In this document: positions 521-10,873 of the stretch, piece after piece
Position numbering within the stretch: position 1 is the stretch's first letter
Layout of the letters: every line of letters begins with the position of its first letter
Virus record (IMG/VR): IMGVR_UViG_2529292887_000009
Direction: 5' to 3' (one strand)
DNA from: a virus
Lineage: Duplodnaviria > Heunggongvirae > Uroviricota > Caudoviricetes
DNA length: 10,873 nucleotides
Position numbers and translations under genes: made by a program
Notes under the pieces: generated by a model
What the model saw: only the letters and a program-made list of their open reading frames with translations
Database searches by the model: none
What the model was told of the DNA's origin: nothing

Positions 521-1192
521 TCATTCCTGTGCCCAGCCAACCCTGTATGCCAGTATCTCATCCGCACTGGTCAGCTTTTCCAGCTCTTTCTTCATGGTGC
601 GCTGGCGAACGTGGATTTCCATCCCTTTGGTGAACATCGCCTGCTCTGCCGCTTCACTCAGCGCAATAAGCTCTTCTGCTGTCACCGACACATCATTGTT
701 TTCCGCATCCGTCCAGAAAAACGCCTCCGGCAGTTTCCCCGCTTTCGCTGCCGCCACCGATGGCTCAAGACGCGTCTGCGTTGACTTCCCGTAGTCCCAT
801 TTACGCCCATTGTGCTCAAACGTGTAGTTCGCCGCTTCCATCGCATTACGCCAGGCGTTAATTTCATCGCCCTTCATCCCTCGCGCTTTCTCCGCGGTCA
901 GCAGGTCCGTGATTTTCTCCCCGTCAAAACCCCAGCGCCCCGAGATGTCAGCTTTGCGGTTTTCTTCCGTATCCGCCACCTCCACCACACTCTGGTTCAC
1001 AGGCCACAGAACTGATGCCACCCTGCCGATGCCGGTAATGACCCCGGCACTGTTATAAACCACCTTCAGCGTCTCTGCTGAAAATAACGACTGACACTCA
1101 TACCAGTCCTGACCATCCTCTGATTTCAGGTACATCGCACCCGGCACATCCGGATTTTCCGGCGTGTATTGTCTGAAATTCTTTATGTGCAT
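521..1192 (-). CDS. tfa: tail fiber assembly protein (Tfa chaperone), 223 aa
   Basis: N-terminus MHIKNFRQY...SEDGQDWYE...VVEVADTEENRKADISGRW resembles the P2 gpG / Tfa N-domain family. It lies directly downstream of stf, as in lambdoid and P2-like phages. RBS GGGAGGA lies 7 nt upstream of the ATG at 1192. Confidence 0.8.
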   Translation of the reverse strand: MHIKNFRQYTPENPDVPGAMYLKSEDGQDWYECQSLFSAETLKVVYNSAGVITGIGRVASVLWPVNQSVVEVADTEENRKADISGRWGFDGEKITDLLTAEKARGMKGDEINAWRNAMEAANYTFEHNGRKWDYGKSTQTRLEPSVAAAKAGKLPEAFFWTDAENNDVSVTAEELIALSEAAEQAMFTKGMEIHVRQRTMKKELEKLTSADEILAYRVGWAQE

Positions 1193-1233: not shown

Positions 1234-2961
1234 TTATAATGGAAAATACTCAAACCCCGAAGCTCCTGACGACACATACTCACCCACGCTGACTGTACGC
1301 CACTGAGAACCATCAAATGTCACCTGAAGCGGCCTGTAAGATACCCTGTCAATAAGGGTTTTGTTTCCGTCGTTGTAACCGCCAATCCCCGTAATCATCG
1401 CACCAATATCCAAATCCACTACCCATGTAGTGCCGTCTGTTTGCGGCGCATAAGTCTGTTTATTACCCAGCCTGATACCCACAACCCGGCTCTTCCCGTC
1501 TGATGCCCCGGGCGGTCCCATCGGCCCGGTTTCTCCACGCTCACCTCTGGGACCGGGGTCGCCTTTCTCCCCTTTCGGTCCCTGCGCTCCCCGCGGACCA
1601 GCGGGGCCTGTTGCTCCCGTTTCACCTTTCGGACCCTGTGCTCCGGGGTCGCCTTTCTCTCCTTTCGGACCGGGAACACCACCTCCTGCTGCAGCCTCTT
1701 CTGCCTTTGTTTTCGCTTCATTTGCCACATCCATTGCCGCCTTCACGGCCTTCGGCGTGGCTGCCTTTGTTTCGTCATTACTGCCAGTATCACTGCTTAA
1801 CTGCACCACACCTTTCTGCGTCGTGCTGGCATCCCGCTGGCTGACCGTATCCGGTTTGTTCTTTGTGCTGTAATCCACCCGCCAGTGGAAATACTGTGTG
1901 TCGCCGTAAACCGTACAGGTACAGACCGTGCCATTAATAAACCCCGTTGCACCGTATTCGCCAATGGTGACCCGGACTATGGCTGCCTCATACTTCCCCA
2001 TCACCTCAATGACACAGCCACCCAGATTAAGTTTTCCCGGTCCGACATCCGTGATGACCTTATTGAATCCCGCATGCAGTGATGCCTTCATCATCCAGTA
2101 AGGCTGGTCAAATGCCCCTTTTTCTTTCAGCCAGGCGACAAACTCGCGAGTTTTCCATTCACCGGACCCCGTATGAATGTCCCGCCCGTATACTCTGGCA
2201 GCTCCCACGGTGTTCAGAAACTTCACCTTATCCGGGATATCGTCACCGTTTTTCGCTTTCTCAAGGCATCCGTCCGCTTTGTCCATTGCCGCTTTCACCG
2301 CTTTCGGGGTGGCTGCCTTCGTTTCATCATCACTGTCCGTTGCGCTGCTTAACTGCACAATTCCCTTCTGTGCCGTCGTCGCATCCGGCCCTCCCGGCTC
2401 GCCTTTTTCGCCCTTCTCTCCCCGTTCACCTTTCACACCCTGAAGCCCCTGTGGTCCTGTCTCACCACGCTCACCCTTTGGCCCACGCTCGCCGGTATCG
2501 CCTTTTGGCCCGGGAATACCCTGCGGCCCGGTGTCCCCCTTATCCCCCTTCGGTCCCCGCGCATTCTCTGCCCGTTTTTTTGCCTCCTCCGCACTGGCTG
2601 CGGACGCTTCCGCACGTTTCAGGATTTCCGCTGCCACCGCTTCCAGCTCTGCAAGGGCTTTCGGGTAATACTGTGCGTCTTCCAGGTCCATCAGAAATTT
2701 ATTCAGCGTTCCCGGTGCAGAATCCGCCTTCACCAGAATGTCACCCACATATGACGGCGCGTACCCTTCCGTGTTCAGCGTCACCCGGTATAACCCGGGC
2801 TCAACATCCATACTGTAACTGCCGGTTTCCCCCGGCTGACCATACGCCACCGTGGTGACAATCACCGTCTCCGTTGTGCGGCGCGCTTTCAGCTCTATCG
2901 TGCATCCCGGTACCGCTTTTCCCGTACCATCCTTCAGCACACCCGATATTCTGACTGTCAT
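1234..2961 (-). CDS. stf: side tail fiber protein with two collagen-like Gly-X-Y blocks, 575 aa
   Basis: N-terminus [28 protein letters not shown] resembles the lambda Stf N-terminus. Two long G-X-Y runs ([25 protein letters not shown]... and [28 protein letters not shown]...). Two copies of the phage tail-fibre repeat motif QKG[IV][30 protein letters not shown] upstream of the ATG at 2961. Confidence 0.85.
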
Positions 2962-2974
2962 GGATTTCCCCCAT

Positions 2975-3008
2975 AAAAAAACCGCAGTACCGGTTTCCCG
3001 GCCTGCGG
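2975..3008 (-). terminator. intrinsic terminator downstream of the hok-like gene, overlapping the stf ribosome binding region
   Basis: Minus-strand reading: CCGCAG-G-CCGG-GAAA-CCGG-TA-CTGCGG followed by TTTTTTT (plus-strand A-run 2975-2981). Stem CCGCAG/CTGCGG with an inner CCGG/CCGG pair. The T-run runs directly into the stf SD/ATG. Confidence 0.5.
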
Positions 3009-3103
3009 TAATATTTGTGGTTTGTTGGTGTTAAAACGGTGCCATCCGGCTGACCACCCTCAGCAACCGGTCGGCGGGGGATATTCTCCCCCGCCACGGT
3101 TTC

Positions 3104-3244
3104 TTACTGCTTACACTGTAAGAACGCCGCAATCTCCGCGCCCGCTATCCGGAACCGGAACTCGCACAGTGAAGTGTGGGTGATCCAGATAATGAGCACT
3201 ACCGTGATACACATCACGGTGGTTTTTAACGGTTTTTGCGACAT
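3104..3244 (-). CDS. Hok/Gef-family type I toxin (46 aa membrane peptide)
   Basis: Below the 60-aa cutoff of the ORF track; found by manual translation: MSQKPLKTTVMCITVVLIIWITHTSLCEFRFRIAGAEIAAFLQCKQ. Near-match to the Hok/Gef signature (C-I-T-VV-x4-I-x-[RG->H]-x2-L-C), with E[FIL]R[FY]R and E[IVL]AAF[LM]xC motifs as in HokA/HokB/Hok. Strong SD AAGGAG 8 nt upstream of the ATG (3244); TAA stop at 3104-3106. Confidence 0.7.
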   Translation of the reverse strand: MSQKPLKTTVMCITVVLIIWITHTSLCEFRFRIAGAEIAAFLQCKQ

Positions 3245-3397
3245 AACGCTTGCTCCTTTTACGGAGAGGCGCTAACCTTTCACTTGCTTAGGATGAATGG
3301 TCAGGCCTCGGGTTAAACATGAATGTTTTGTCCGGGGCCTTTTCACATCCGGCCTTCAGGTGTTCCCTCCGGCCATCAGCCAAAGGCACCCGCGCAT

Positions 3398-3426
3398 ACT
3401 GTACGGTTTTTGTCTCCTTCCGGCAA
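3398..3426 (-). promoter_or_regulatory. candidate sigma70 promoter for the hok-like gene
   Basis: Minus strand: -35 TTGCCG (plus 3421-3426), 17-bp spacer, -10 TACAGT (plus 3398-3403). Lies 17 nt after the J stop and would give a leader of about 145 nt, similar to known hok mRNAs. Hexamer matches are only 4/6 each. Confidence 0.2.
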
Positions 3427-3442
3427 TCCCGGGGCGCGATGT

Positions 3443-6400
3443 TCAGCGGATGCTGATCCCCGCGCTGTTTTTCTTCACCACTATCGCCTGAAGGTTACTG
3501 ATTCGTGAACTGCCCCAACTGTTATTCTGACGCCGTGAGCTCACGGTAAAACTCAGGGTGATATGACCACCGCCAGCTGGCATATCGATGATCCCGCTGA
3601 AAATTCCCGGCTCTGTCACTGACCTGCCTGAATAAATCCGGCGTCCATTCTGATCAACATGCAGGAAGCACTCTGTCCAGATGTCATTACTGGTGCGGGA
3701 TTCCTGTTTTGACCCGACATAGATTATCGGCGGGATTATAATCTGCCGGTCAAAGCGGTGATCGTCATACACCGTCAGCGTTCGTGTACCGTTCGCAAGG
3801 TGACTACCATCCACCGGAAAAGCCACCCCTGCACATTTCACAAGATCACCAATAATGTTCTCCGCTTTCAGCGTGCCATTTATCGTACAGTTCTCCGCTA
3901 TCACGACATTATTGAGCGTGCCCGAGTTCGCACTGATATGTCCGCTGATGTCCGCATTGCGGGCCGTCAGCCTGCCCTCCGGCGTCAGGGAGAACGTCGG
4001 GGGATTGCCGGACGAGGTGATGCTCACTGCAAACAGTCGCTTCAGGAACACATCGTTCATGAACAGCTGATTCCCCTGCGCCACAAACAGCGGCGTGGTG
4101 TTGCCGTTCTCCGGGTTAATCATCGCGATACGGTCCGCCTGCAGCAGAATATTGCTCAGGGGCTGGCCATCAGCATCCTCAATCCCCGCACCAATACCGG
4201 CAACATACGGAATGCCGTTTTTCGTTTTCTGCACCTTCAGCATGTACAGCGCTGCCAGCTCATCATTCGTGTCTGACTGGACCTGCTGTATCTGCTGTAT
4301 GGTCGCGCTCTGGTCTTCCAGGGTTTTACTGACCGTCTGTGTGATTTCATTGCGGGTTTCGGTGATGGTGGTCTTCATCTCCGCCATCTCATCATCAAGC
4401 TGGCTGTTATCAATCAGCTCCCACATCCCCTGTGCCAGATGTGTCTTCCCGATTTCTCCTCTGAAAAAGTCCAGATACCCTTCCGCATCATTGCTCGCCC
4501 GGCCACTGGCTTCCACAAACGCAGATTTCCCCACCAGATTGACGCTGCGCACATAAAACCAGAAATCCTTCCCCGGCCTGATGTGCGGGCCGGAGACGCT
4601 CCACTGGCTGCCGGTACCCAGATAACGGGCTGAGGTTTCCACCTGTGCCGTGTCCGTGATGCGTTTTTCTGAGAACCAGAATTCATACTGTACCGTCGGG
4701 TCATACACCGCCAGCACCGGTACTGCTGTTATCTGAAAATACCCCGGCGTCAGTTCAATGCTGGCCGGTGCCGCCGGTGCATTAATCCGGAATGTGGTGG
4801 TGGCAGGTTCGCCCTGCTGGCCGTAGCTGTTTATCGCCCTGACCGTCAGGGTGTATTCCCCGAGCGGCAGGCCACTGAAACGGTGCTCCGTGTCGGCAGT
4901 GATGGCGCTGGTCACCAGGCGGCTGTTTTCACCGTTTCCGCTGGTCAGGCGCAGACTGAAGCGCACGCCCTTCACCACCCGCGGCGTGTCCCATTTCGCC
5001 AGCGCCAGATACTGGCCGTCTGAGGCACTCACCTCCACCGTGAGGTGCTGCACTGCCGGCGGGATGACGCTGTTCAGTGAGCCGGACATCGGCTCAAAGC
5101 GGGCTCCGTTATCCACAATGGCTTCTTTTTCCGGTACGTGCTGCACTGCCGTGATGGCAAAGGTGCCGTCCGTGTTTTCCCGGATGGAAACACAGCGGAA
5201 CAGGCGACGACGCAGTGACGGCAGGGAGAGTCCCCACACACCGTATGTTGCCACGCCATCAGGCAGGACGCTGACCTGTATCCGGTCCGGGGCGGGGTGT
5301 GCAGTGATGTCCACGCGCACCGGCTTACCGCTGCCGTTAATCAGGTTCACCGTCGATGTCCCTGTCTCCGGCAGTGTCACCTCACGGTCCAGCGTCAGTG
5401 TGCGGCTGGCGGCATCGATGGACAGGATGCGTCCGCCGGTCAGGGTCCCGGCATAGTCGTTATCACAGATTTCAATGATGTCACCGGGTGTGTGCCGCAG
5501 CCCCTGAGACCCGAGCGTGAAATCCACCGTCTGCGTTTCCAGCAGTTCTGTCTTTATCACCCACAGTCCGGCACGGTGAGCCTGACCGCGGCTGGTACAG
5601 CCGAACGCGTCCATCTTCAGCAGGTTGCGCCCGTAGCGCAGGATGGCGTCCGGGTCTTCCACCAGTTCCGTGGACGTCTGCCAGCCGTTCTGCGGGTCAG
5701 TGTAATTCACCTCCACCGCCGTGTGCCGGTCCTTCAGGGCACTGAAGCTGTAGCGGAACCCCACGCCGTTATCATCCACCACCACATCGCTGTTGGTGTA
5801 CGGCCACACCACATCCGACGGACGGTCCTGAACGAACGTCAGCGTCTGGCCGTTCCATACCGGCATACAGCGCATCGCCGAGCAAAAATCCCCCAGGACA
5901 TCCCACACCTTACGCTGCTGTGACAGGTACGCATTAAAGGTCATCCGCGGCTCTGTGCCCCCGAAACCATCCGGGACCGTCTGGTCGCAGTACTGCCCGA
6001 TGGCATACAGCGCCCACTTGTCCACATCCGCGGCCCCCAGGCGTTTTCCCATCCCGTAGCGCGGGTGAGTCAGCATGTCCCACAGGCACCAGGCCGGGTT
6101 ATTGCTGTATGCCGGTTTCAGACTCCCGTCCCAGATACCGCTGTAGGTGCGTTTTTCCGGGTCATAGTTTGACGGCACCTGAATGATGCGGCCGCGGATA
6201 TGGTAGTTCACCACCATCTGCTGGCCACCGAACTGCTCCGCATCCACCTGCAGCCCCACAATGGCCGTGTTCGGGTAGCACTGTTTCACATCGATGATTT
6301 CGGTGTATGACGACCACAGCGTTCTGTTCTGCAGCTGGTCCGTGGTACTGTCCGCCGTCACCCTGACCACCCGGATGTTAAAGGGGCGCTCAGGGAGATT

Positions 6401-6910
6401 ATTCAGAATCACCGACGTCAGGTACTGCGAGGTGGTCTTGCCGTTAATGGTGACATCCTTCTCCGTCACCCAGTTACCGTTACGCTCAAGCTGAATCAGC
6501 AGGCGGACAGAAGAGGGATTACGGTCACCCTTTGAGGTGGTCTCCACCAGTGACTGCACCCCGAAGGTGACCCGCAGACGGTCAATGTTCGCTGACGTGA
6601 TGGTGCGCGTCACCGGCTTTGCCTTCGTCACCTCCACGCCCAGTGCGGTTTCTGCCCCGGAGGACTCAAAGCCTTCAGGTGGTGTCTGCTCCTGCTCCCC
6701 GGCACGCCAGACGGCGGTCACACCGTGTATCACGGGATTACCGTCCGTGTCCGTCAGCGGGGTTTTGTTCACCAGAATACTCTGCAGTCCCTTCACCGGA
6801 CCTTCCACCGGTCCCTCACCAATGGCATCAATCACGCTCATCATCTGCGTGGATTTGAGATTGTCCTTCGCCTCACGCGGTGTGTGCCCCTTGCCGCCCC
6901 CTTTACCCAC
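3443..6910 (-). CDS. J: tail tip / host specificity protein J (central tail fiber), about 1155 aa
   Basis: Long collinear similarity to lambda gpJ ([17 protein letters not shown]..., [104 protein letters not shown]). Start placed at GTG 6908-6910 (aligns with the lambda N-terminal MGKGSSKGHTP; preceded by AAAGGGGGA), not at the TTG at 6961 used by the ORF track. Confidence 0.9.
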
Positions 6911-6948
6911 TCTGTCCCCCTTTCCTGTCTGATGTCTGAATCTGTTTA

Positions 6949-6983
6949 TGCCCAAAAACAACAGGCACCCCGGAGGGTGCCTG
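6949..6983 (-). terminator. terminator-like hairpin (minus-strand orientation) just upstream of the J ribosome binding site
   Basis: 9-bp stem CAGGCACCC (6962-6970) / GGGTGCCTG (6975-6983) with a 4-nt loop; on the minus strand it is followed by TTGTTTTTGGG (plus 6949-6960). Confidence 0.35.
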
Positions 6984-6992
6984 TGTCATGAC

Positions 6993-7219
6993 GGAATAAA
7001 ATTTCTGAAATTCTTCACATTTCCGGCAATTGCCTGTAGCCGCAATAATGACGCTGCGTTACATTTTTGATGCCTGAAAAATAACTCCATAACGTTAATC
7101 TTCATCGTTCTCTCCCGCAGCTCCGCTGATTCTGCGGGATTTTTTTATCCCTTAAACCCGGCACGATGTTATCTGTCTTCTTCCACAGATACCCGCCTGG
7201 CTTCCGCTCCCCCGCTACC
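6993..7219. repeat. tandem repeat unit A (about 227 bp) of the I-J intergenic array
   Basis: Contains conserved block GGAATAAAATTTCTGAAATTCTTCACATTTCCGGCAATTGCCTGTAGCCGCAATAATGACGCTGCGTTACA, a variable segment, the hairpin CCCGCAG/CTGCGGG plus T7, and a 3' segment weakly resembling the 3' end of gene I. Confidence 0.8.
7113..7146 (+). terminator. plus-strand intrinsic-terminator-like hairpin, repeat unit A
   Basis: TCCCGCAG (7113-7120), loop CTCCGCTGATT, CTGCGGGA (7132-7139), then TTTTTTT (7140-7146). Orientation is antisense to the tail operon. Confidence 0.5.
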
Positions 7220-7441
7220 GGATAAAAAGTCTGAATTTATTCACATTTCTGCAAATTACCTGTAGCCACAATAATGACGCTGCGTTACATTTTTTGCGGG
7301 TAAATAAAAATAAAACGCCAACAGGTTAGTCAACATCGTTCTCTTCCCGCAGCACGGAGTACTGCGGGATTTTTTTATCCCCTGAACCCGGCATGATGCC
7401 TTCTGTCCTCTGCCACCGATATCCGGCCCCTCCCTTCCCGT
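7220..7441. repeat. tandem repeat unit B (about 222 bp)
   Basis: Same block order as unit A, with point substitutions and small indels (e.g. ...TTCACATTTCTGCAAATTACCTGTAGCCACAATAATGACGCTGCGTTACA...). Anchor TTCACAT recurs at 7014, 7240 and 7462 (periods 226 and 222 bp). Confidence 0.8.
7345..7376 (+). terminator. plus-strand intrinsic-terminator-like hairpin, repeat unit B
   Basis: TCCCGCAG (7345-7352), loop CACGGAGTA, CTGCGGGA (7362-7369), then T7 (7370-7376). Stem identical to unit A, loop different. Confidence 0.5.
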
Positions 7442-7665
7442 GAATAAAAATTCTGAGTTTATTCACATTTCCGCACACTGACTGTAGTGCTCATAATCAC
7501 GCTGCGTTACAGTTCATCTGCCAGAATAATGAAAAATTCCTTAAAGTTAATCTTCGTATCTCTTCCCGCAGGCGCCGAACACTGCGGGATTTTTTTTCAT
7601 CCCCGCCCGATAACCACCACTTTCCCGTCACCGCCCTCATCACGGGTGCTGATGTCCTGGGATAT
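7442..7665. repeat. tandem repeat unit C; its 3' segment is the real 3' end of gene I
   Basis: Block TGAATAAAAATTCTGAGTTTATTCACATTTCCGCACACTGACTGTAGTGCTCATAATCACGCTGCGTTACA followed by the same hairpin plus T8; the T-run abuts the I stop codon (7597-7599). Confidence 0.75.
7564..7597 (+). terminator. plus-strand intrinsic-terminator-like hairpin, repeat unit C (abuts the I stop codon)
   Basis: TCCCGCAG (7564-7571), loop GCGCCGAACA, CTGCGGGA (7582-7589), then T8 (7590-7597). Stem identical to units A and B, loop different. Confidence 0.5.
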
Positions 7666-8277
7666 CCGTCGTGAACCAACCAGCATTTCACCGTAAGGCA
7701 CCGGCATCGGATTCCCCTGAGCAATCATGTTGTCCAGTGACGAAAAATACGTGTTCTGTTTACCGTTATCCGTACTTTTGTATTCCGGCGTCTTTGCCTT
7801 CGGGGCCAGCATCTGGGCCACACCACCCAGTATCATGCTGGCACCCAGTGAGAACAGCATCGTGGTGGCAGTCAGCCCTCCGGCACTCAGGGCTGCGCCC
7901 CACAACGCCATCGTTGCACCGGCGGTGAAGAAAGAGCCCACGATGGCTGCAGCCCCCAGCACCACCTGAAAAACACCATTTCCCCCGGCCCCTGCCAGCC
8001 TCGGTACAATATGAATCACGGCTCTCCCGCTCAGCGGTTCATGAAGACGGGCATACACCGCCTCCGGCGCGGTATCCTCACCGGCAATACGTATCTGGTA
8101 CCAGCCTTCGTTCATCTGACCGCGGAATCCCGGCACCTGCAGCGACAGGGCACGGATGGCCTCCGCTGCCGTGTTCACATACAGGCTGATGCGGCGACCA
8201 AATCGTTGTAAATCCCCGTGAAGGCAGATGCGGACCAGTGGCGGTGACGCCAGACAGAATGCGTTCGTCGTTGCCAT
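7597..8277 (-). CDS. I: tail assembly protein I, 226 aa
   Basis: Collinear similarity to lambda gpI (ICLHGDLQRFGRRI, GAVIHIVPR.AGA, TDNGKQNTYFSSLDNM.AQGN, YGEM.VGSR). ATG at 8275-8277; overlaps the 3' end of K by about 100 nt, as in lambda. Confidence 0.9.
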   Translation of the reverse strand: MATTNAFCLASPPLVRICLHGDLQRFGRRISLYVNTAAEAIRALSLQVPGFRGQMNEGWYQIRIAGEDTAPEAVYARLHEPLSGRAVIHIVPRLAGAGGNGVFQVVLGAAAIVGSFFTAGATMALWGAALSAGGLTATTMLFSLGASMILGGVAQMLAPKAKTPEYKSTDNGKQNTYFSSLDNMIAQGNPMPVPYGEMLVGSRRISQDISTRDEGGDGKVVVIGRG

Positions 8278-8918
8278 TTCTCTGAATACCTCTCCCGTTT
8301 ACTCAGTTGTTCAGGTATATGGTGAAGCAGCTCACCGTTGCCACAGTAAATGGCGGCATGATTCGGCACCGATGCGCCAAAGCAGCACAGCAGGATATCG
8401 CCTGCCTGTGCAGAGGACAGGGACACCCGGCAAAAGCCGGTGGCCTCCATATTGTCCAGGTACAGGTTCTGGCCGTTGCGCCACCAGTCATCCTCGCGGT
8501 GAAAATCCGGCAGCGTTATCCCCGCCAGATGGTATGCATCCCGGAACAGGGTGTAACAGTCCGTCACACCGTGTTCAAAGCGCCGTCCGGTCAGGTGCGG
8601 CACACAGCGGAACCGGTGAATTTCACCCCGGCAGACCAGCCACCAGGGCAGGGCACTCTTTATCTGCAGCCGCCGGTCCGCCTCGCTCAGCCAGGGCAGA
8701 CCACCGGGATGACTGTGGACCAGCGCCACAATCTCCCCCTGCATCTGTGCCTGCAGCCAGTCCTCCGGCGCAATACGAAAATACGCCTCCGGCTCTGCGG
8801 AGATATTCACGCAGGGCTGGTACCGTTCGCCCTCCGGGGTGCTTATCACGAAGCCGCACGACTCCGCTGGCGCACACCGCCGGGCATGCGCCAGAATCGC
8901 TGATTCAGTCTGTGTCAT
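8175..8918 (-). CDS. K: tail assembly protein K (JAMM/MPN metalloprotease-like plus NlpC/P60-like domains), 247 aa
   Basis: Translation from the ATG at 8916-8918: MTQTESAILAHARRCAPAESCGFV... with JAMM motif HSHPGGLPWLSEAD and the K-like segment HLTGRRFEHGVTDCYTLFRDAYHLAG. The track ORF (start 9179) overlaps L and is too long; start chosen 10 nt after the L stop. A later start, as in some lambda K annotations, cannot be excluded. Confidence 0.85.
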   Translation of the reverse strand: MTQTESAILAHARRCAPAESCGFVISTPEGERYQPCVNISAEPEAYFRIAPEDWLQAQMQGEIVALVHSHPGGLPWLSEADRRLQIKSALPWWLVCRGEIHRFRCVPHLTGRRFEHGVTDCYTLFRDAYHLAGITLPDFHREDDWWRNGQNLYLDNMEATGFCRVSLSSAQAGDILLCCFGASVPNHAAIYCGNGELLHHIPEQLSKRERYSEKWQRRTHSVWRHRHWSASAFTGIYNDLVAASACM

Positions 8919-8928
8919 AAAACGGGAT

Positions 8929-9627
8929 TTACTGCGAAAGTTTATTAATGGAAAGGAAACCGCCGAAATTAGCCACCATGCCGCGCATCTCACACCCGCG
9001 CATGCATTTACTGCATCTGTCCTTCCGGATATCCGTGGTGGGGTTGTCGAACTCATCCGCCACTGCCGGACCGTTATACCCGCATTCATCGCCCCGGTAA
9101 TCCCACATACAGGTGTTCGCCAGCATGATGCGACCGGGAAACAGCGCACCGTCCGTCTCCGTCGGTGTCGCCAGCACAAACGAGGCCGTCATGGCCGTCA
9201 GCGCTGACATCTGCTCCACCACCCACCGGTCCGTCAGCTCCTGCTCCGGGTCGGCCTCCGGATTGCCTGCCACAAAGTTCACCGCATCCAGAAAACGCGC
9301 ATACACCCGGCGACGGACCACCGTGGCACCCACCAGGCTCTGCAAATCCTCCGCCATCCCGGTGACAAGGCCGAAAAGATTGGACACTGTCAGCGACGGG
9401 CGGGCACTGCTGCCCTTTCCGTTCATCTCAAAGCCACTCCCCTCAATCGGGTACGCCTGATATTCACGCCCCTGCCAGGTCACCGGCTCCCCTTTTTCAT
9501 TCAGCTCATTGCAGAAAAAATACCGCTCACCGCCCTGCACCGTCAGGTCGATTTCCCAGAGCACCACCCGCGGTGACTGCTCTGACTTAACCGACTCGTT
9601 CAGGCTTGCTTCGTGAATATCCTGCAT
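8929..9627 (-). CDS. L: minor tail protein L, 232 aa
   Basis: Same length as lambda gpL; C-terminal Cys cluster (C-x8-C ... C-x2-C-x3-C) consistent with the Fe-S binding region of gpL. Its ATG (9625-9627) overlaps the M stop in a TGATG arrangement. Confidence 0.9.
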   Translation of the reverse strand: MQDIHEASLNESVKSEQSPRVVLWEIDLTVQGGERYFFCNELNEKGEPVTWQGREYQAYPIEGSGFEMNGKGSSARPSLTVSNLFGLVTGMAEDLQSLVGATVVRRRVYARFLDAVNFVAGNPEADPEQELTDRWVVEQMSALTAMTASFVLATPTETDGALFPGRIMLANTCMWDYRGDECGYNGPAVADEFDNPTTDIRKDRCSKCMRGCEMRGMVANFGGFLSINKLSQ

Positions 9628-9956
9628 CAGTTCACCACCTGCTTAAACTCCGCGCTGAACTCAACGCGCAACATCCCGACCCGCGCAGACCACCCGGCAC
9701 AGGTCACCTTTATCTGCCGGTATGCATAGGGTGGCTTCCACAAAAATGCCTTCCAGCCCCCGTGCTCTGCCAGGAACGCTTCCAGATGCCGGGCCTCCTC
9801 CCGGCTCACGGAAAGCATCACCCGGTATGTTTTCAGGTCAGCATTCAGCCCTGCCGCCATACGCTGTGAGTACCCGTCACCAAAACGCACTTCACGCACC
9901 GACGGCTGCGAGTTCACCTCCATATCCGGCTTCACTTTCCAGCGAAAGGTTTTCAT
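9627..9956 (-). CDS. M: minor tail protein M, 109 aa
   Basis: MKTFRWKVKP...VRFGDGYSQR...LKTY.V.LSV.REEA..LE.FL.EHGGWK.FLW.PPY..RQIKVTCA.WS.RV.MLRVEFSAEF.QVVN: same length and near-identical pattern to lambda gpM. Its ATG overlaps the H stop (ATGA). Confidence 0.9.
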   Translation of the reverse strand: MKTFRWKVKPDMEVNSQPSVREVRFGDGYSQRMAAGLNADLKTYRVMLSVSREEARHLEAFLAEHGGWKAFLWKPPYAYRQIKVTCAGWSARVGMLRVEFSAEFKQVVN

Positions 9957-10873
9957 CGCCCGCTCCCTGATAACATACCGCCATCACGCAACTGCAGCCG
10001 GAGCTCATCCTGCGCCCCCTTGCGGGCCATGTCATACACCGCCTTCATCAGCTGCGGCCCCGCCTGTCCGTTGATACCGTCGTTCTGAATCACCACGTGA
10101 TTGTTCTGATTAAAATTAATACCTTCCGCCCGCCGCATCTGCGCCGGACTTCCGGCACCACCCACATAACCCCCTTCCGCATAGCCGCGCATCAGACGGT
10201 AAAGATTCCCCACGCCTATCCGGCTGGTTGCCTCCTTCGTGAAGACAAACTCCCCGCGGTGAACTATCCCCGCAGGCTCATATTTGCCGCCCGTGCCCGT
10301 AAATCCGCCGGTCGCAAAATGAAAGTTCGCCGCCGCAGCCTGAATGGCTGTCCCCGTGGAAGCGGATGCGCCAGCACCACCAATGGCTCCCCCGATGGCG
10401 CTGCCGATACGCCCGACAATGCCCACCATGGCCTGTTTAAGCAGAATTTCTGTCATCATGGACAGCACCGAACGGGTGAATCCCCGCCAGTTCTGTTCGC
10501 TGCCGGTCAGCATCGCCGCCATATTCTGTGCAATACCATCAAAGGTCTGCGTGGCCACACTTTTAACCTGCGAAAAACTGTCCGTCGCACTTTCCGCCCA
10601 CTCGCCCCAGCCGGACTTCAGCCCGGCCAGCCAGTCACCGCGCAGCATGTCTTCATCCGCCCATGTCTGTTTCAGTGCCCCGGTGACCCGGGCCAGCGCC
10701 TGCGGATTACCGCCATACATGTCACGAAGACGCTGCGCTTCAGACTCCCGCTGCGCCTGACGGTCAGTGAGACCGCGGGCTTTTGCGCTGATGGCGGCCT
10801 GCTTCGCGCTCTGTTGCTCTTCAAACCGTGCTGCCTGCTGTGCAAGTTCATTCAGGCGTTTCTGGTGCTCCAC
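9953..10873 (-). CDS. H: tail length tape measure protein H, C-terminal about 306 aa (5' end lies beyond the window)
   Basis: The ORF runs to the window edge with no true start; Gly/Ala-rich segment (GRIGSAIGGAIGGAGASASTG...) and C-terminal region typical of the lambda gpH C-terminus; followed by M, L, K, I, J in lambda order. Confidence 0.85.
   Translation of the reverse strand: MEHQKRLNELAQQAARFEEQQSAKQAAISAKARGLTDRQAQRESEAQRLRDMYGGNPQALARVTGALKQTWADEDMLRGDWLAGLKSGWGEWAESATDSFSQVKSVATQTFDGIAQNMAAMLTGSEQNWRGFTRSVLSMMTEILLKQAMVGIVGRIGSAIGGAIGGAGASASTGTAIQAAAANFHFATGGFTGTGGKYEPAGIVHRGEFVFTKEATSRIGVGNLYRLMRGYAEGGYVGGAGSPAQMRRAEGINFNQNNHVVIQNDGINGQAGPQLMKAVYDMARKGAQDELRLQLRDGGMLSGSGR

Follow-up and report, generated by a model that had tools for sequence, protein, structure and literature searches.

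A predicted hok/sok-type toxin-antitoxin cassette in the gap between tail genes J and stf of a lambda-type prophage tail module

What occupies the gap between the tail tip gene J and the side tail fibre gene stf in the virus record IMGVR_UViG_2529292887_000009 (Caudoviricetes)? The stretch analysed here, which we call the window, is 10,873 nucleotides (nt) long, and the gap measures 481 nt from the J stop codon (3445-3443) to the stf ATG (2961). An initial annotation of the window had proposed that a 46-codon open reading frame (ORF) in this gap encodes a Hok/Gef-family type I toxin carried as a moron. To judge from its sequence, the ORF is a genuine Hok/Gef-family toxin gene, and a self-contained type I toxin-antitoxin cassette of the hok/sok type very probably takes up the whole gap. 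That the peptide belongs to the family, and that the RNA elements are present and conserved, is shown here in silico; for toxicity we draw on the literature on a 93%-identical peptide. The gene at the centre of the question is the following.

3104-3244, minus strand: hok coding sequence, identified by translation, Pfam, PHROG and conserved residues.

The ORF runs from ATG (3244-3242) to TAA (3106-3104) and encodes 46 amino acids (aa) followed by the stop codon. Its translation, MSQKPLKTTVMCITVVLIIWITHTSLCEFRFRIAGAEIAAFLQCKQ, is letter for letter the peptide that had been quoted, and the features attributed to it are in place. The ribosome-binding site AAGGAG, described as a near-consensus Shine-Dalgarno (SD) sequence, lies at 3258-3253 (minus strand) with a spacing of 8 nt to the ATG. 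The peptide contains C12, then 14 residues and L26-C27-E28-x-R30-x-R32, and further on E37-I-A-A-F41. The expected hydrophobic helix appears as a Kyte-Doolittle maximum of ~3.0 (11-residue window) over residues 9-21, which is consistent with a single membrane helix. The profile search that had been suggested as a check matches Pfam HOK_GEF (PF01848) with 39.6 bits against a gathering cut-off of 22 (E = 3.8e-10), and PHROG 251 ("MokW-like host killing", category "moron, auxiliary metabolic gene and host takeover") matches over the full length with E = 1.2e-20. By these matches, an ORF passed over by the 60-aa ORF track is a real toxin gene. A survey of 1264 Hok peptides found seven residues (M1, C16, T18, L30, C31, E32 and E41 in R1 numbering) that are kept in over 80% of them (Escalera-Maurer et al. 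2026, bioRxiv 10.1101/2025.08.07.668861); alignment with HokC and HokW places all seven in the window peptide, as M1, C12, T14, L26, C27, E28 and E37. Across the hok subfamily, the median pairwise ratio of nonsynonymous to synonymous substitution rates (dN/dS) is 0.37. Besides the cysteine of the LCE motif (C27), the peptide carries a second one, C44, near its C-terminus (FLQCKQ), which is invariant in 8 aligned subfamily members; at position 48 of the Hok family logo, C is found in 34% and Y in 62% of peptides (bioRxiv 10.1101/2025.08.07.668861).

The RNA elements of the cassette listed here and below are in-silico predictions from sequence, folding and homology; the promoters were assigned by homology with sokW and sokC plus alignment.

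3398-3426, minus strand: predicted hok promoter, with -35 TTGCCG (3426-3421), a 17-nt spacer, -10 TACAGT (3403-3398) and the start at G3391.

2975-3391, minus strand: predicted full-length hok mRNA of ~417 nt, from 5' GGGUGCC to the T-run of the terminator.

3371-3391, minus strand: 5' element GGGUGCCUUUGGCUGAUGGCC, the 'tac' equivalent, predicted to pair with fbi and to refold locally after fbi removal.

3244-3274, minus strand: hairpin hiding the hok SD, with UAGCGC (3274-3269) paired to GCGUUA (3249-3244) and CUCC (3266-3263) paired to GGAG (3256-3253).

3073-3095, minus strand: GC-rich hairpin GGCGGGGGAGAAUAUCCCCCGCC directly past the hok stop codon, with compensatory changes at 4 helix pairs (alignment A4).

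3038-3055, minus strand: fbi-type 3' element GGUCAGCCGGAUGGCACC, complementary to the mRNA 5' end.

2975-3008, minus strand: intrinsic terminator of the cassette, a bulged stem CCGCAGGCCGG/CCGGUACUGCGG followed by U7 (-21.6 kcal/mol, z = -4.05).

The putative start, G3391, lies 7 nt past the -10 box, and a -10 of the form TAnAnT sits 6-7 nt ahead of GGGTGCC in all seven loci of alignment A2. The Rfam family RF01794 ("sok") matches 3391-3233 (minus strand) over the full model with E = 3e-9 and begins exactly at the predicted mRNA 5' end. In K-12 (L004), RF01794 occupies 754..602 in the sense orientation of hokC and encloses the annotated sokC (653-711), which is antisense; the model therefore describes the hok mRNA leader. 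A match to this model, which is named 'sok antitoxin', marks a hok leader between the mRNA 5' end and the hok ATG and gives the strand opposite that of Sok.

A lock between the two mRNA ends, formed by tac and fbi, defines hok mRNAs. The RNA from 3391 to 2972 reaches a minimum free energy (MFE) of -184.3 kcal/mol, with z = -7.5 relative to shuffled sequences. Its MFE and centroid folds agree in joining the 5' end GGUGCCUUUGGCUGAUGGCC to GGUCAGCCGGAUGGCACC (3055-3038), a pairing that closes the fold. The duplex of the 5' end with fbi is worth -36.1 kcal/mol, a value reached by none of 1000 shuffles of the 3' partner (mean -17.9, sd 3.1). We aligned 11 loci from Escherichia, Salmonella, Serratia, Yersinia and one marine metagenome. 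GGGUGCC is invariant in the 11, and the core GGGUGCC/GGCACC(C) pairing is kept in every one; the outermost pair alone is lost in the window. The SD hairpin, which sequesters the SD of hok together with the first nucleotide of its start codon, belongs to the consensus fold of the same 11 loci, where its positions are mostly invariant or changed on one side, and its local fold reaches a z of only -2.0. When fbi is deleted in silico, the 5' end re-pairs with AAAAGGCCCC beside the mok-type start and the strong stem of the SD hairpin is lost. This predicted refolding is compatible with the R1 model of activation by 3' trimming.

The antitoxin half is predicted on the opposite strand.

3250-3278, plus strand: predicted Sok promoter, with -35 TTGCTC (3250-3255), a 17-nt spacer and -10 TAACCT (3273-3278).

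3285-3347, plus strand: predicted Sok-like antisense RNA of ~58-62 nt, projected from K-12 sokC through RF01794.

The -35 box overlaps the complement of the hok SD. The layout is shared with the annotated sokW promoter of 933W (TTGCCT, 17 nt, TAACCT, 6 nt, +1), and the -10 box is identical. AGGTTA, the sense-strand complement of this -10, is invariant in 11/11 loci. According to its primers, the 'pro-less' construct in which sokW antitoxin activity was abolished carries its mutation at the sokW -10 (Takada et al. 2021, PMC8621323). Projection of sokC onto the window sets the limits of the RNA at about 3286/3290 to 3343/3347 (plus strand), and within these limits ~17 unpaired nt at the 5' end are followed by a GC-rich hairpin of 10 bp (3303-3340) and by a U-run (3340-3343), the architecture of SokC and SokW. 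In silico, the locus thus has the antisense RNA of a hok/sok-type system, predicted to start from its own promoter over the hok ribosome-binding site.

The third classical component, the leader frame mok, which in R1 ties the translation of hok to its control by Sok, stands apart.

3343-3357, minus strand: mok-type start region, with SD GAAGG (3357-3353), AUG 3348-3346, UGA 3345-3343 and an overlapping GUG 3346-3344.

3272-3346, minus strand: 24-codon upstream ORF from GUG 3346 to UAG 3274-3272 at the base of the SD hairpin, a candidate mok surrogate.

At the corresponding site, ~103 nt upstream of hok, relatives have the SD GAAGG followed by AUG-UGG, and their mok-type ORFs are 8, 14, 19, 24, 61 or 79 codons long. 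The two longest, in E. albertii (79 codons) and in a P2-like prophage of E. coli ST131 (61 codons), overlap hok as classical mok does (L019 and L025). The 24-codon ORF of the window stops 27 nt ahead of the hok ATG and does not overlap the gene. The invariant UAG at its end also closes a GUG frame in 933W and AUG frames in L024 and the Salmonella locus s1; the 24-codon ORF is not kept in all relatives, and 4 of the 11 loci have no start codon at all at the mok site. A search for a conserved mok ORF across 11-13 related loci found neither frame nor length conserved. The invariant AGGTTAG in this region is explained at least as well by the Sok -10 on the opposite strand. Because of this explanation and the start codons missing from four loci, we do not count mok among the elements found, and a canonical mok, with its frame reduced to a start and a stop in the window, was rejected. 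The missing mok weakens the label 'canonical hok/mok/sok', not that of a Hok toxin under antisense control.

Several observations weigh against the reading of the gap as a complete hok/sok-type cassette. In the window and its close relatives the mok frame is an AUG-UGA start-stop (3348-3343); the textbook coupling step is therefore unproven, and it may differ here or the locus may be translationally silent. The NCBIfam models HokA and PRK09738 match the peptide with E ~ 1e-8, under their subfamily or equivalog cut-offs, which places it outside the named HokA-E types. The RF01794 match scores 51.1 bits, below the gathering threshold of 59; K-12 hokC scores 118.3 bits and a relative from a Shiga toxin (Stx) phage 33.1 bits. 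A generic sigma-70 scan of 2900-3500 with a threshold of 9/12 found no promoter, and neither the hok promoter, which agrees with the consensus at 8/12 positions, nor the Sok promoter passes it. The 5'-3' lock is backed mostly by conservation and little by covariation: cognate duplexes are not clearly better than non-cognate ones (-28.1 vs -26.6 kcal/mol), a test that is uninformative because the core is invariant.

We infer the mechanism by homology with R1 hok/sok, K-12 hokC/sokC and 933W hokW/sokW, and likewise that Sok is expressed, what sets off the toxin and how the prophage would profit. The weak promoter would yield a stable hok mRNA of ~417 nt, held translationally inert at full length by the pairing of its 5' GGGUGCC... 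with the 3' fbi ...GGCACC and by its buried ribosome-binding site. A short and presumably unstable Sok-like RNA, transcribed on the plus strand from the promoter that overlaps the hok ribosome-binding site, would bind the leader immediately past the mok-type start and keep the toxin off. Once the Sok supply stops, the 3'-trimmed hok mRNA would refold and be translated; prophage loss, transcription shut-off by an infecting lytic phage and post-induction events are possible triggers. The 46-aa single-helix peptide would then enter the inner membrane, and the membrane potential would collapse. An unlikely variant is that hok of this subfamily is controlled without a classical overlapping mok, through a minimal leader ORF (AUG-UGA or the 24-codon frame) at the conserved start site on the 3' edge of the Sok target, together with antiterminated late transcription that switches the cassette on at induction. 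A ribosome terminating at the UAG within the SD hairpin would melt the hairpin, and late transcripts could act as a switch because the cassette is embedded in the tail operon in the sense direction. If true, both would be variations on the hok paradigm and no new kind of system.

Is the cassette a moron? The genes on its two sides are as had been claimed.

3443-6961, minus strand: tail tip attachment protein J, the upstream neighbour, with six GpJ Pfam domains; the RefSeq start is equivalent to 6910.

1234-2961, minus strand: side tail fibre gene (stf-like), the downstream neighbour, with a phage_tail_N domain, collagen repeats and Phage_fiber_2 repeats.

The predicted promoter begins 16 nt past the J stop codon and the terminator ends 13 nt short of the stf ATG. 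As an extra gene between operon genes that has its own predicted promoter and terminator, hok would be a moron in the sense of Hendrix and Juhala, in agreement with the PHROG category and with the place it had been given between J and stf. The proposed equivalence to the lom slot holds as well: lambda reads J-lom-orf401. The insertion slot between J and the side tail fibre is shared, whereas lom and the window hok are unrelated in sequence and function. Lom is an outer-membrane beta-barrel protein, and both genes are accessory and dispensable for tail assembly.

How widespread is the arrangement, and has it been seen before? The 601 nt from the end of J across hok to the start of stf are found at at least 80% coverage in 119 of 5426 complete E. 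coli genomes. Among the matches listed, DNA identity is 97-99.7%, and RefSeq annotates a "Hok/Gef family protein" between gpJ and the tail fibre each time; the RefSeq entry for the gene in this context is WP_000078857.1. In phage 1720a-02 (KF030445) the stretch is 98.3% identical and the product, AGR48336.1, is called a 'hypothetical protein'. A recent preprint catalogues 1264 Hok peptides and reports hok to be four-fold enriched in prophages (Escalera-Maurer et al. 2026, bioRxiv 10.1101/2025.08.07.668861). The window peptide falls in its cluster 79, one residue (T24S) from entry 1570, and its peptide 79_1563 is identical at 43/46 residues (93%). Table S2 of the preprint covers 45 homologs expressed in E. 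coli, including 79_1563, 72_1589 and 72_1621; only 19_179, 60_1482 and 69_1540, which the text of the preprint names, were non-toxic (bioRxiv 10.1101/2025.08.07.668861). The window peptide is probably toxic by analogy with 79_1563, which is reported so in that literature. The gene is thus already known: annotated in RefSeq, catalogued, and functionally sampled in a 93%-identical copy. The copies in RefSeq, 1720a-02 and the preprint are essentially the same gene as that of the window, but Sok, the mRNA elements and the place within the tail operon are annotated in none of them, and the preprint analysed neither mok, Sok nor position within prophages (bioRxiv 10.1101/2025.08.07.668861). A literature search for hok together with lom and a tail fibre found no paper. 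The initial annotation was correct in its core call; it had missed the minus strand, the RNA half of the cassette (Sok, lock and hairpin) and the prior annotation and cataloguing of the gene.

Related cassettes (~78-80% nt identity) are found in 1530 of the 5426 genomes (~28%). They lie directly after lom in Stx phages of the 933W and Sp5 types (unannotated in the 933W record), directly after ogr at the ends of P2-like prophages (E. coli ST131, a chicken isolate and Serratia), beside HicAB at a Salmonella prophage end, and beside a pair of com and an N6-methyltransferase gene in Yersinia. The cassette moves as a unit between lambdoid, Stx and P2-like prophages. Members of the subfamily in unrelated prophage types (L024, L025, L008, L005 and L011) are 46-49 aa long, read MSQK...AAFLQCK and sit in accessory slots. 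A scan of genome contigs returned only 5 loci, one of them N-masked in the leader and two apparently from contaminated assemblies. Two subfamily loci occur in assemblies labelled Firmicutes (L016, a contig of a Planococcaceae metagenome-assembled genome, and L017, Vagococcus sp.), and these probably reflect contamination or mis-binning, not true hosts.

The closest comparison is with the lom-adjacent hok of Stx phages (933W, Sp5/VT2-Sakai; PHROG 251; cluster 72, 72_1589), which is annotated 'MokW-like host killing' in phage 75/02 Stx. Its peptide is likewise 46 aa long, with 63% identity to that of the window and the same MSQK N-terminus and AAFLQCKQ C-terminus. Nucleotide identity is ~78% from the promoter through fbi, whereas the sequence 3' of fbi is unrelated. 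The gene lies on the strand of its late or accessory neighbours and shares the 24-codon GUG upstream ORF; it sits after lom and not in its place, the phages are short-tailed, and a 1-nt insertion makes the Sok -35 box TTGACT. In Stx phages of the 933W and Sp5 types this locus (L021, AF125520.1 45428-45856, between lom and L0129; also L003 3070-3210) is a second hok locus and a close relative of the window gene; the studied hokW/mokW/sokW, at 58.4-58.7 kb, is separate from it. The characterised hokW was considered as the Stx-phage homologue and ruled out by the primers and the 933W annotation, which point to a different 51-aa gene at 58.4 kb.

The hokW-mokW-sokW system of 933W and Sp5 (PMC8621323) is prophage-borne too, with demonstrated toxin and antitoxin activity; it shares the leader family RF01794, and its Sok -10 TAACCT and promoter spacing are identical to those of the window. 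HokW, in contrast, belongs to a HokD/Gef-like subfamily (51 aa, 38% identity over 34 residues), and its locus has an annotated in-frame mokW, another genome position and the strand opposite to the large gene L0134. R1 hok/sok and K-12 hokC(gef)/mokC/sokC share with the window the peptide architecture and conserved residues, the ~60-nt antisense RNA (5' tail, hairpin and U-run) with its promoter over the hok ribosome-binding site, and the tac/fbi lock. Their peptides are 50-52 aa long instead of 46 aa, with 33-41% identity, and end in AYESxK, where that of the window ends in FLQCKQ with a second periplasmic cysteine. The mok-type start of the window lies ~46 nt further upstream of hok than in R1 and K-12, at the 3' and not the 5' edge of the Sok-complementary region.

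Against this background the other explanations can be weighed. A chance ORF within an ordinary intergenic spacer would be unsurprising by length, since 46-codon ORFs are common and 19 ORFs of at least 20 aa overlap 2800-3600; the significant Pfam and PHROG matches, the RNA family match, conservation across genera and purifying selection have already refuted this explanation, whose probability is negligible. A decaying, translationally silent relic, passively carried with the tail region like several K-12 chromosomal hok loci, would account for a mok cut to AUG-UGA, for mok lengths that vary among relatives (1, 8, 14, 19, 24, 61 and 79 codons) and for relatives in the database whose hok ORF is truncated or frameshifted (P0016, P0027 and P0042 among them). 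However, the hok ORF is intact with all conserved residues, and the predicted promoters, fbi, SD hairpin and terminator appear intact. The median dN/dS of 0.37, an arrangement kept in 119 genomes with the listed examples at least 97% identical, and the reported toxicity of near-identical peptides also speak against a relic. We consider the relic quite improbable, and less likely than a role in lysis, defence or addiction.

The main job of a functional hok/sok-type cassette may be help with lysis: after induction Sok falls, Hok is made, the inner membrane is weakened and phage release becomes faster or larger. Transcription of the late operon from J would run through the cassette in the same direction as hok and meet the Sok promoter head-on; hok is oriented as J and stf and fills the intergenic gap, so that Q-antiterminated transcription would presumably cross it. 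The hokW-sokW of Sp5, the one prophage hok locus studied until now, is reported to aid phage release: after mitomycin C, sokW disappears and HokW appears in a RecA-dependent manner, and deletion of the locus halves the release (Takada et al. 2021, PMC8621323). Yet hokW is of a different subfamily (38% identity, 34 residues), and in 933W it lies opposite in strand to its large neighbour L0134 and the flanking ORF, so the argument from geometry is not transferable; the P2-like and other prophage copies of the cassette also stand at prophage ends, not inside a tail operon. As the main job, help with lysis is possible but on balance doubtful. The same doubt applies to defence of the lysogen or addiction to the prophage, by post-segregational killing and/or by abortive infection when Sok decays after host transcription is shut off. 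R1 hok/sok stabilises plasmids and lowers T4 plating (cited in PMC8621323), the cassette has its own predicted promoters and can therefore act in a repressed prophage, and hok is four-fold enriched in prophages (bioRxiv 10.1101/2025.08.07.668861). On the other side, a search of the PADLOC defence models gave no match, and loss of a chromosomal prophage is rare and, unlike plasmid loss, creates no daughter lineage in which hok mRNA outlives Sok. Lysogen maintenance and superinfection exclusion, the roles originally suggested, are reasonable by analogy; help with lysis or release, abortive infection and prophage addiction are all plausible on the same footing and are not mutually exclusive.

The results suggest that the J-stf gap is a complete type I cassette and not a spacer, and the Sok RNA and hok mRNA elements should be included when prophages of this family are annotated; beyond correct annotation, the finding matters little. 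The residual interest lies in the degenerate mok and in the way this hok subfamily repeatedly occupies accessory slots of three prophage types, lambdoid, Stx and P2-like. With a variable leader that is reduced to a start-stop here, the subfamily offers a convenient natural test of whether mok coupling is necessary.

Every gene of the window is on the minus strand, and together they make up a tail module of the lambda type. Those beyond J, hok and stf are as follows.

9953-10873, minus strand: C-terminus of the tape-measure protein.

9627-9956, minus strand: tail gene M.

8929-9627, minus strand: tail gene L.

Within 8175-9179, minus strand: tail gene K (JAB and NlpC/P60).

7597-8277, minus strand: tail gene I.

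521-1192, minus strand: DUF4376 protein.

A tRNA scan of the window found none. Between I and J, the stretch 6962-7596 (~640 nt) holds no ORF of at least 60 aa on the gene strand, and its GC content is ~0.46 against ~0.6 in the flanks; the I-J junction of lambda has 60 nt only. A strong terminator-like hairpin (6984-6961, minus strand) stands directly before J. RefSeq annotates nothing in the stretch, which is common to 94 complete E. coli genomes, and an Rfam search of 6962-7596 returned no match; the stretch could be a second moron or a small-RNA slot. At the other end of the window, the first ~500 nt (1-520) have a GC content of 0.42-0.48. In strain JNEC-KY203 the prophage ends just past the DUF4376 gene and adjoins the host gene yfhH (purL-mltF-tadA-yfhH region), and in phage 1720a-02 an integrase gene lies ~600 nt past the corresponding end of the tail-fibre genes. 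The attachment junction is probably located within the first ~500 nt of the window.

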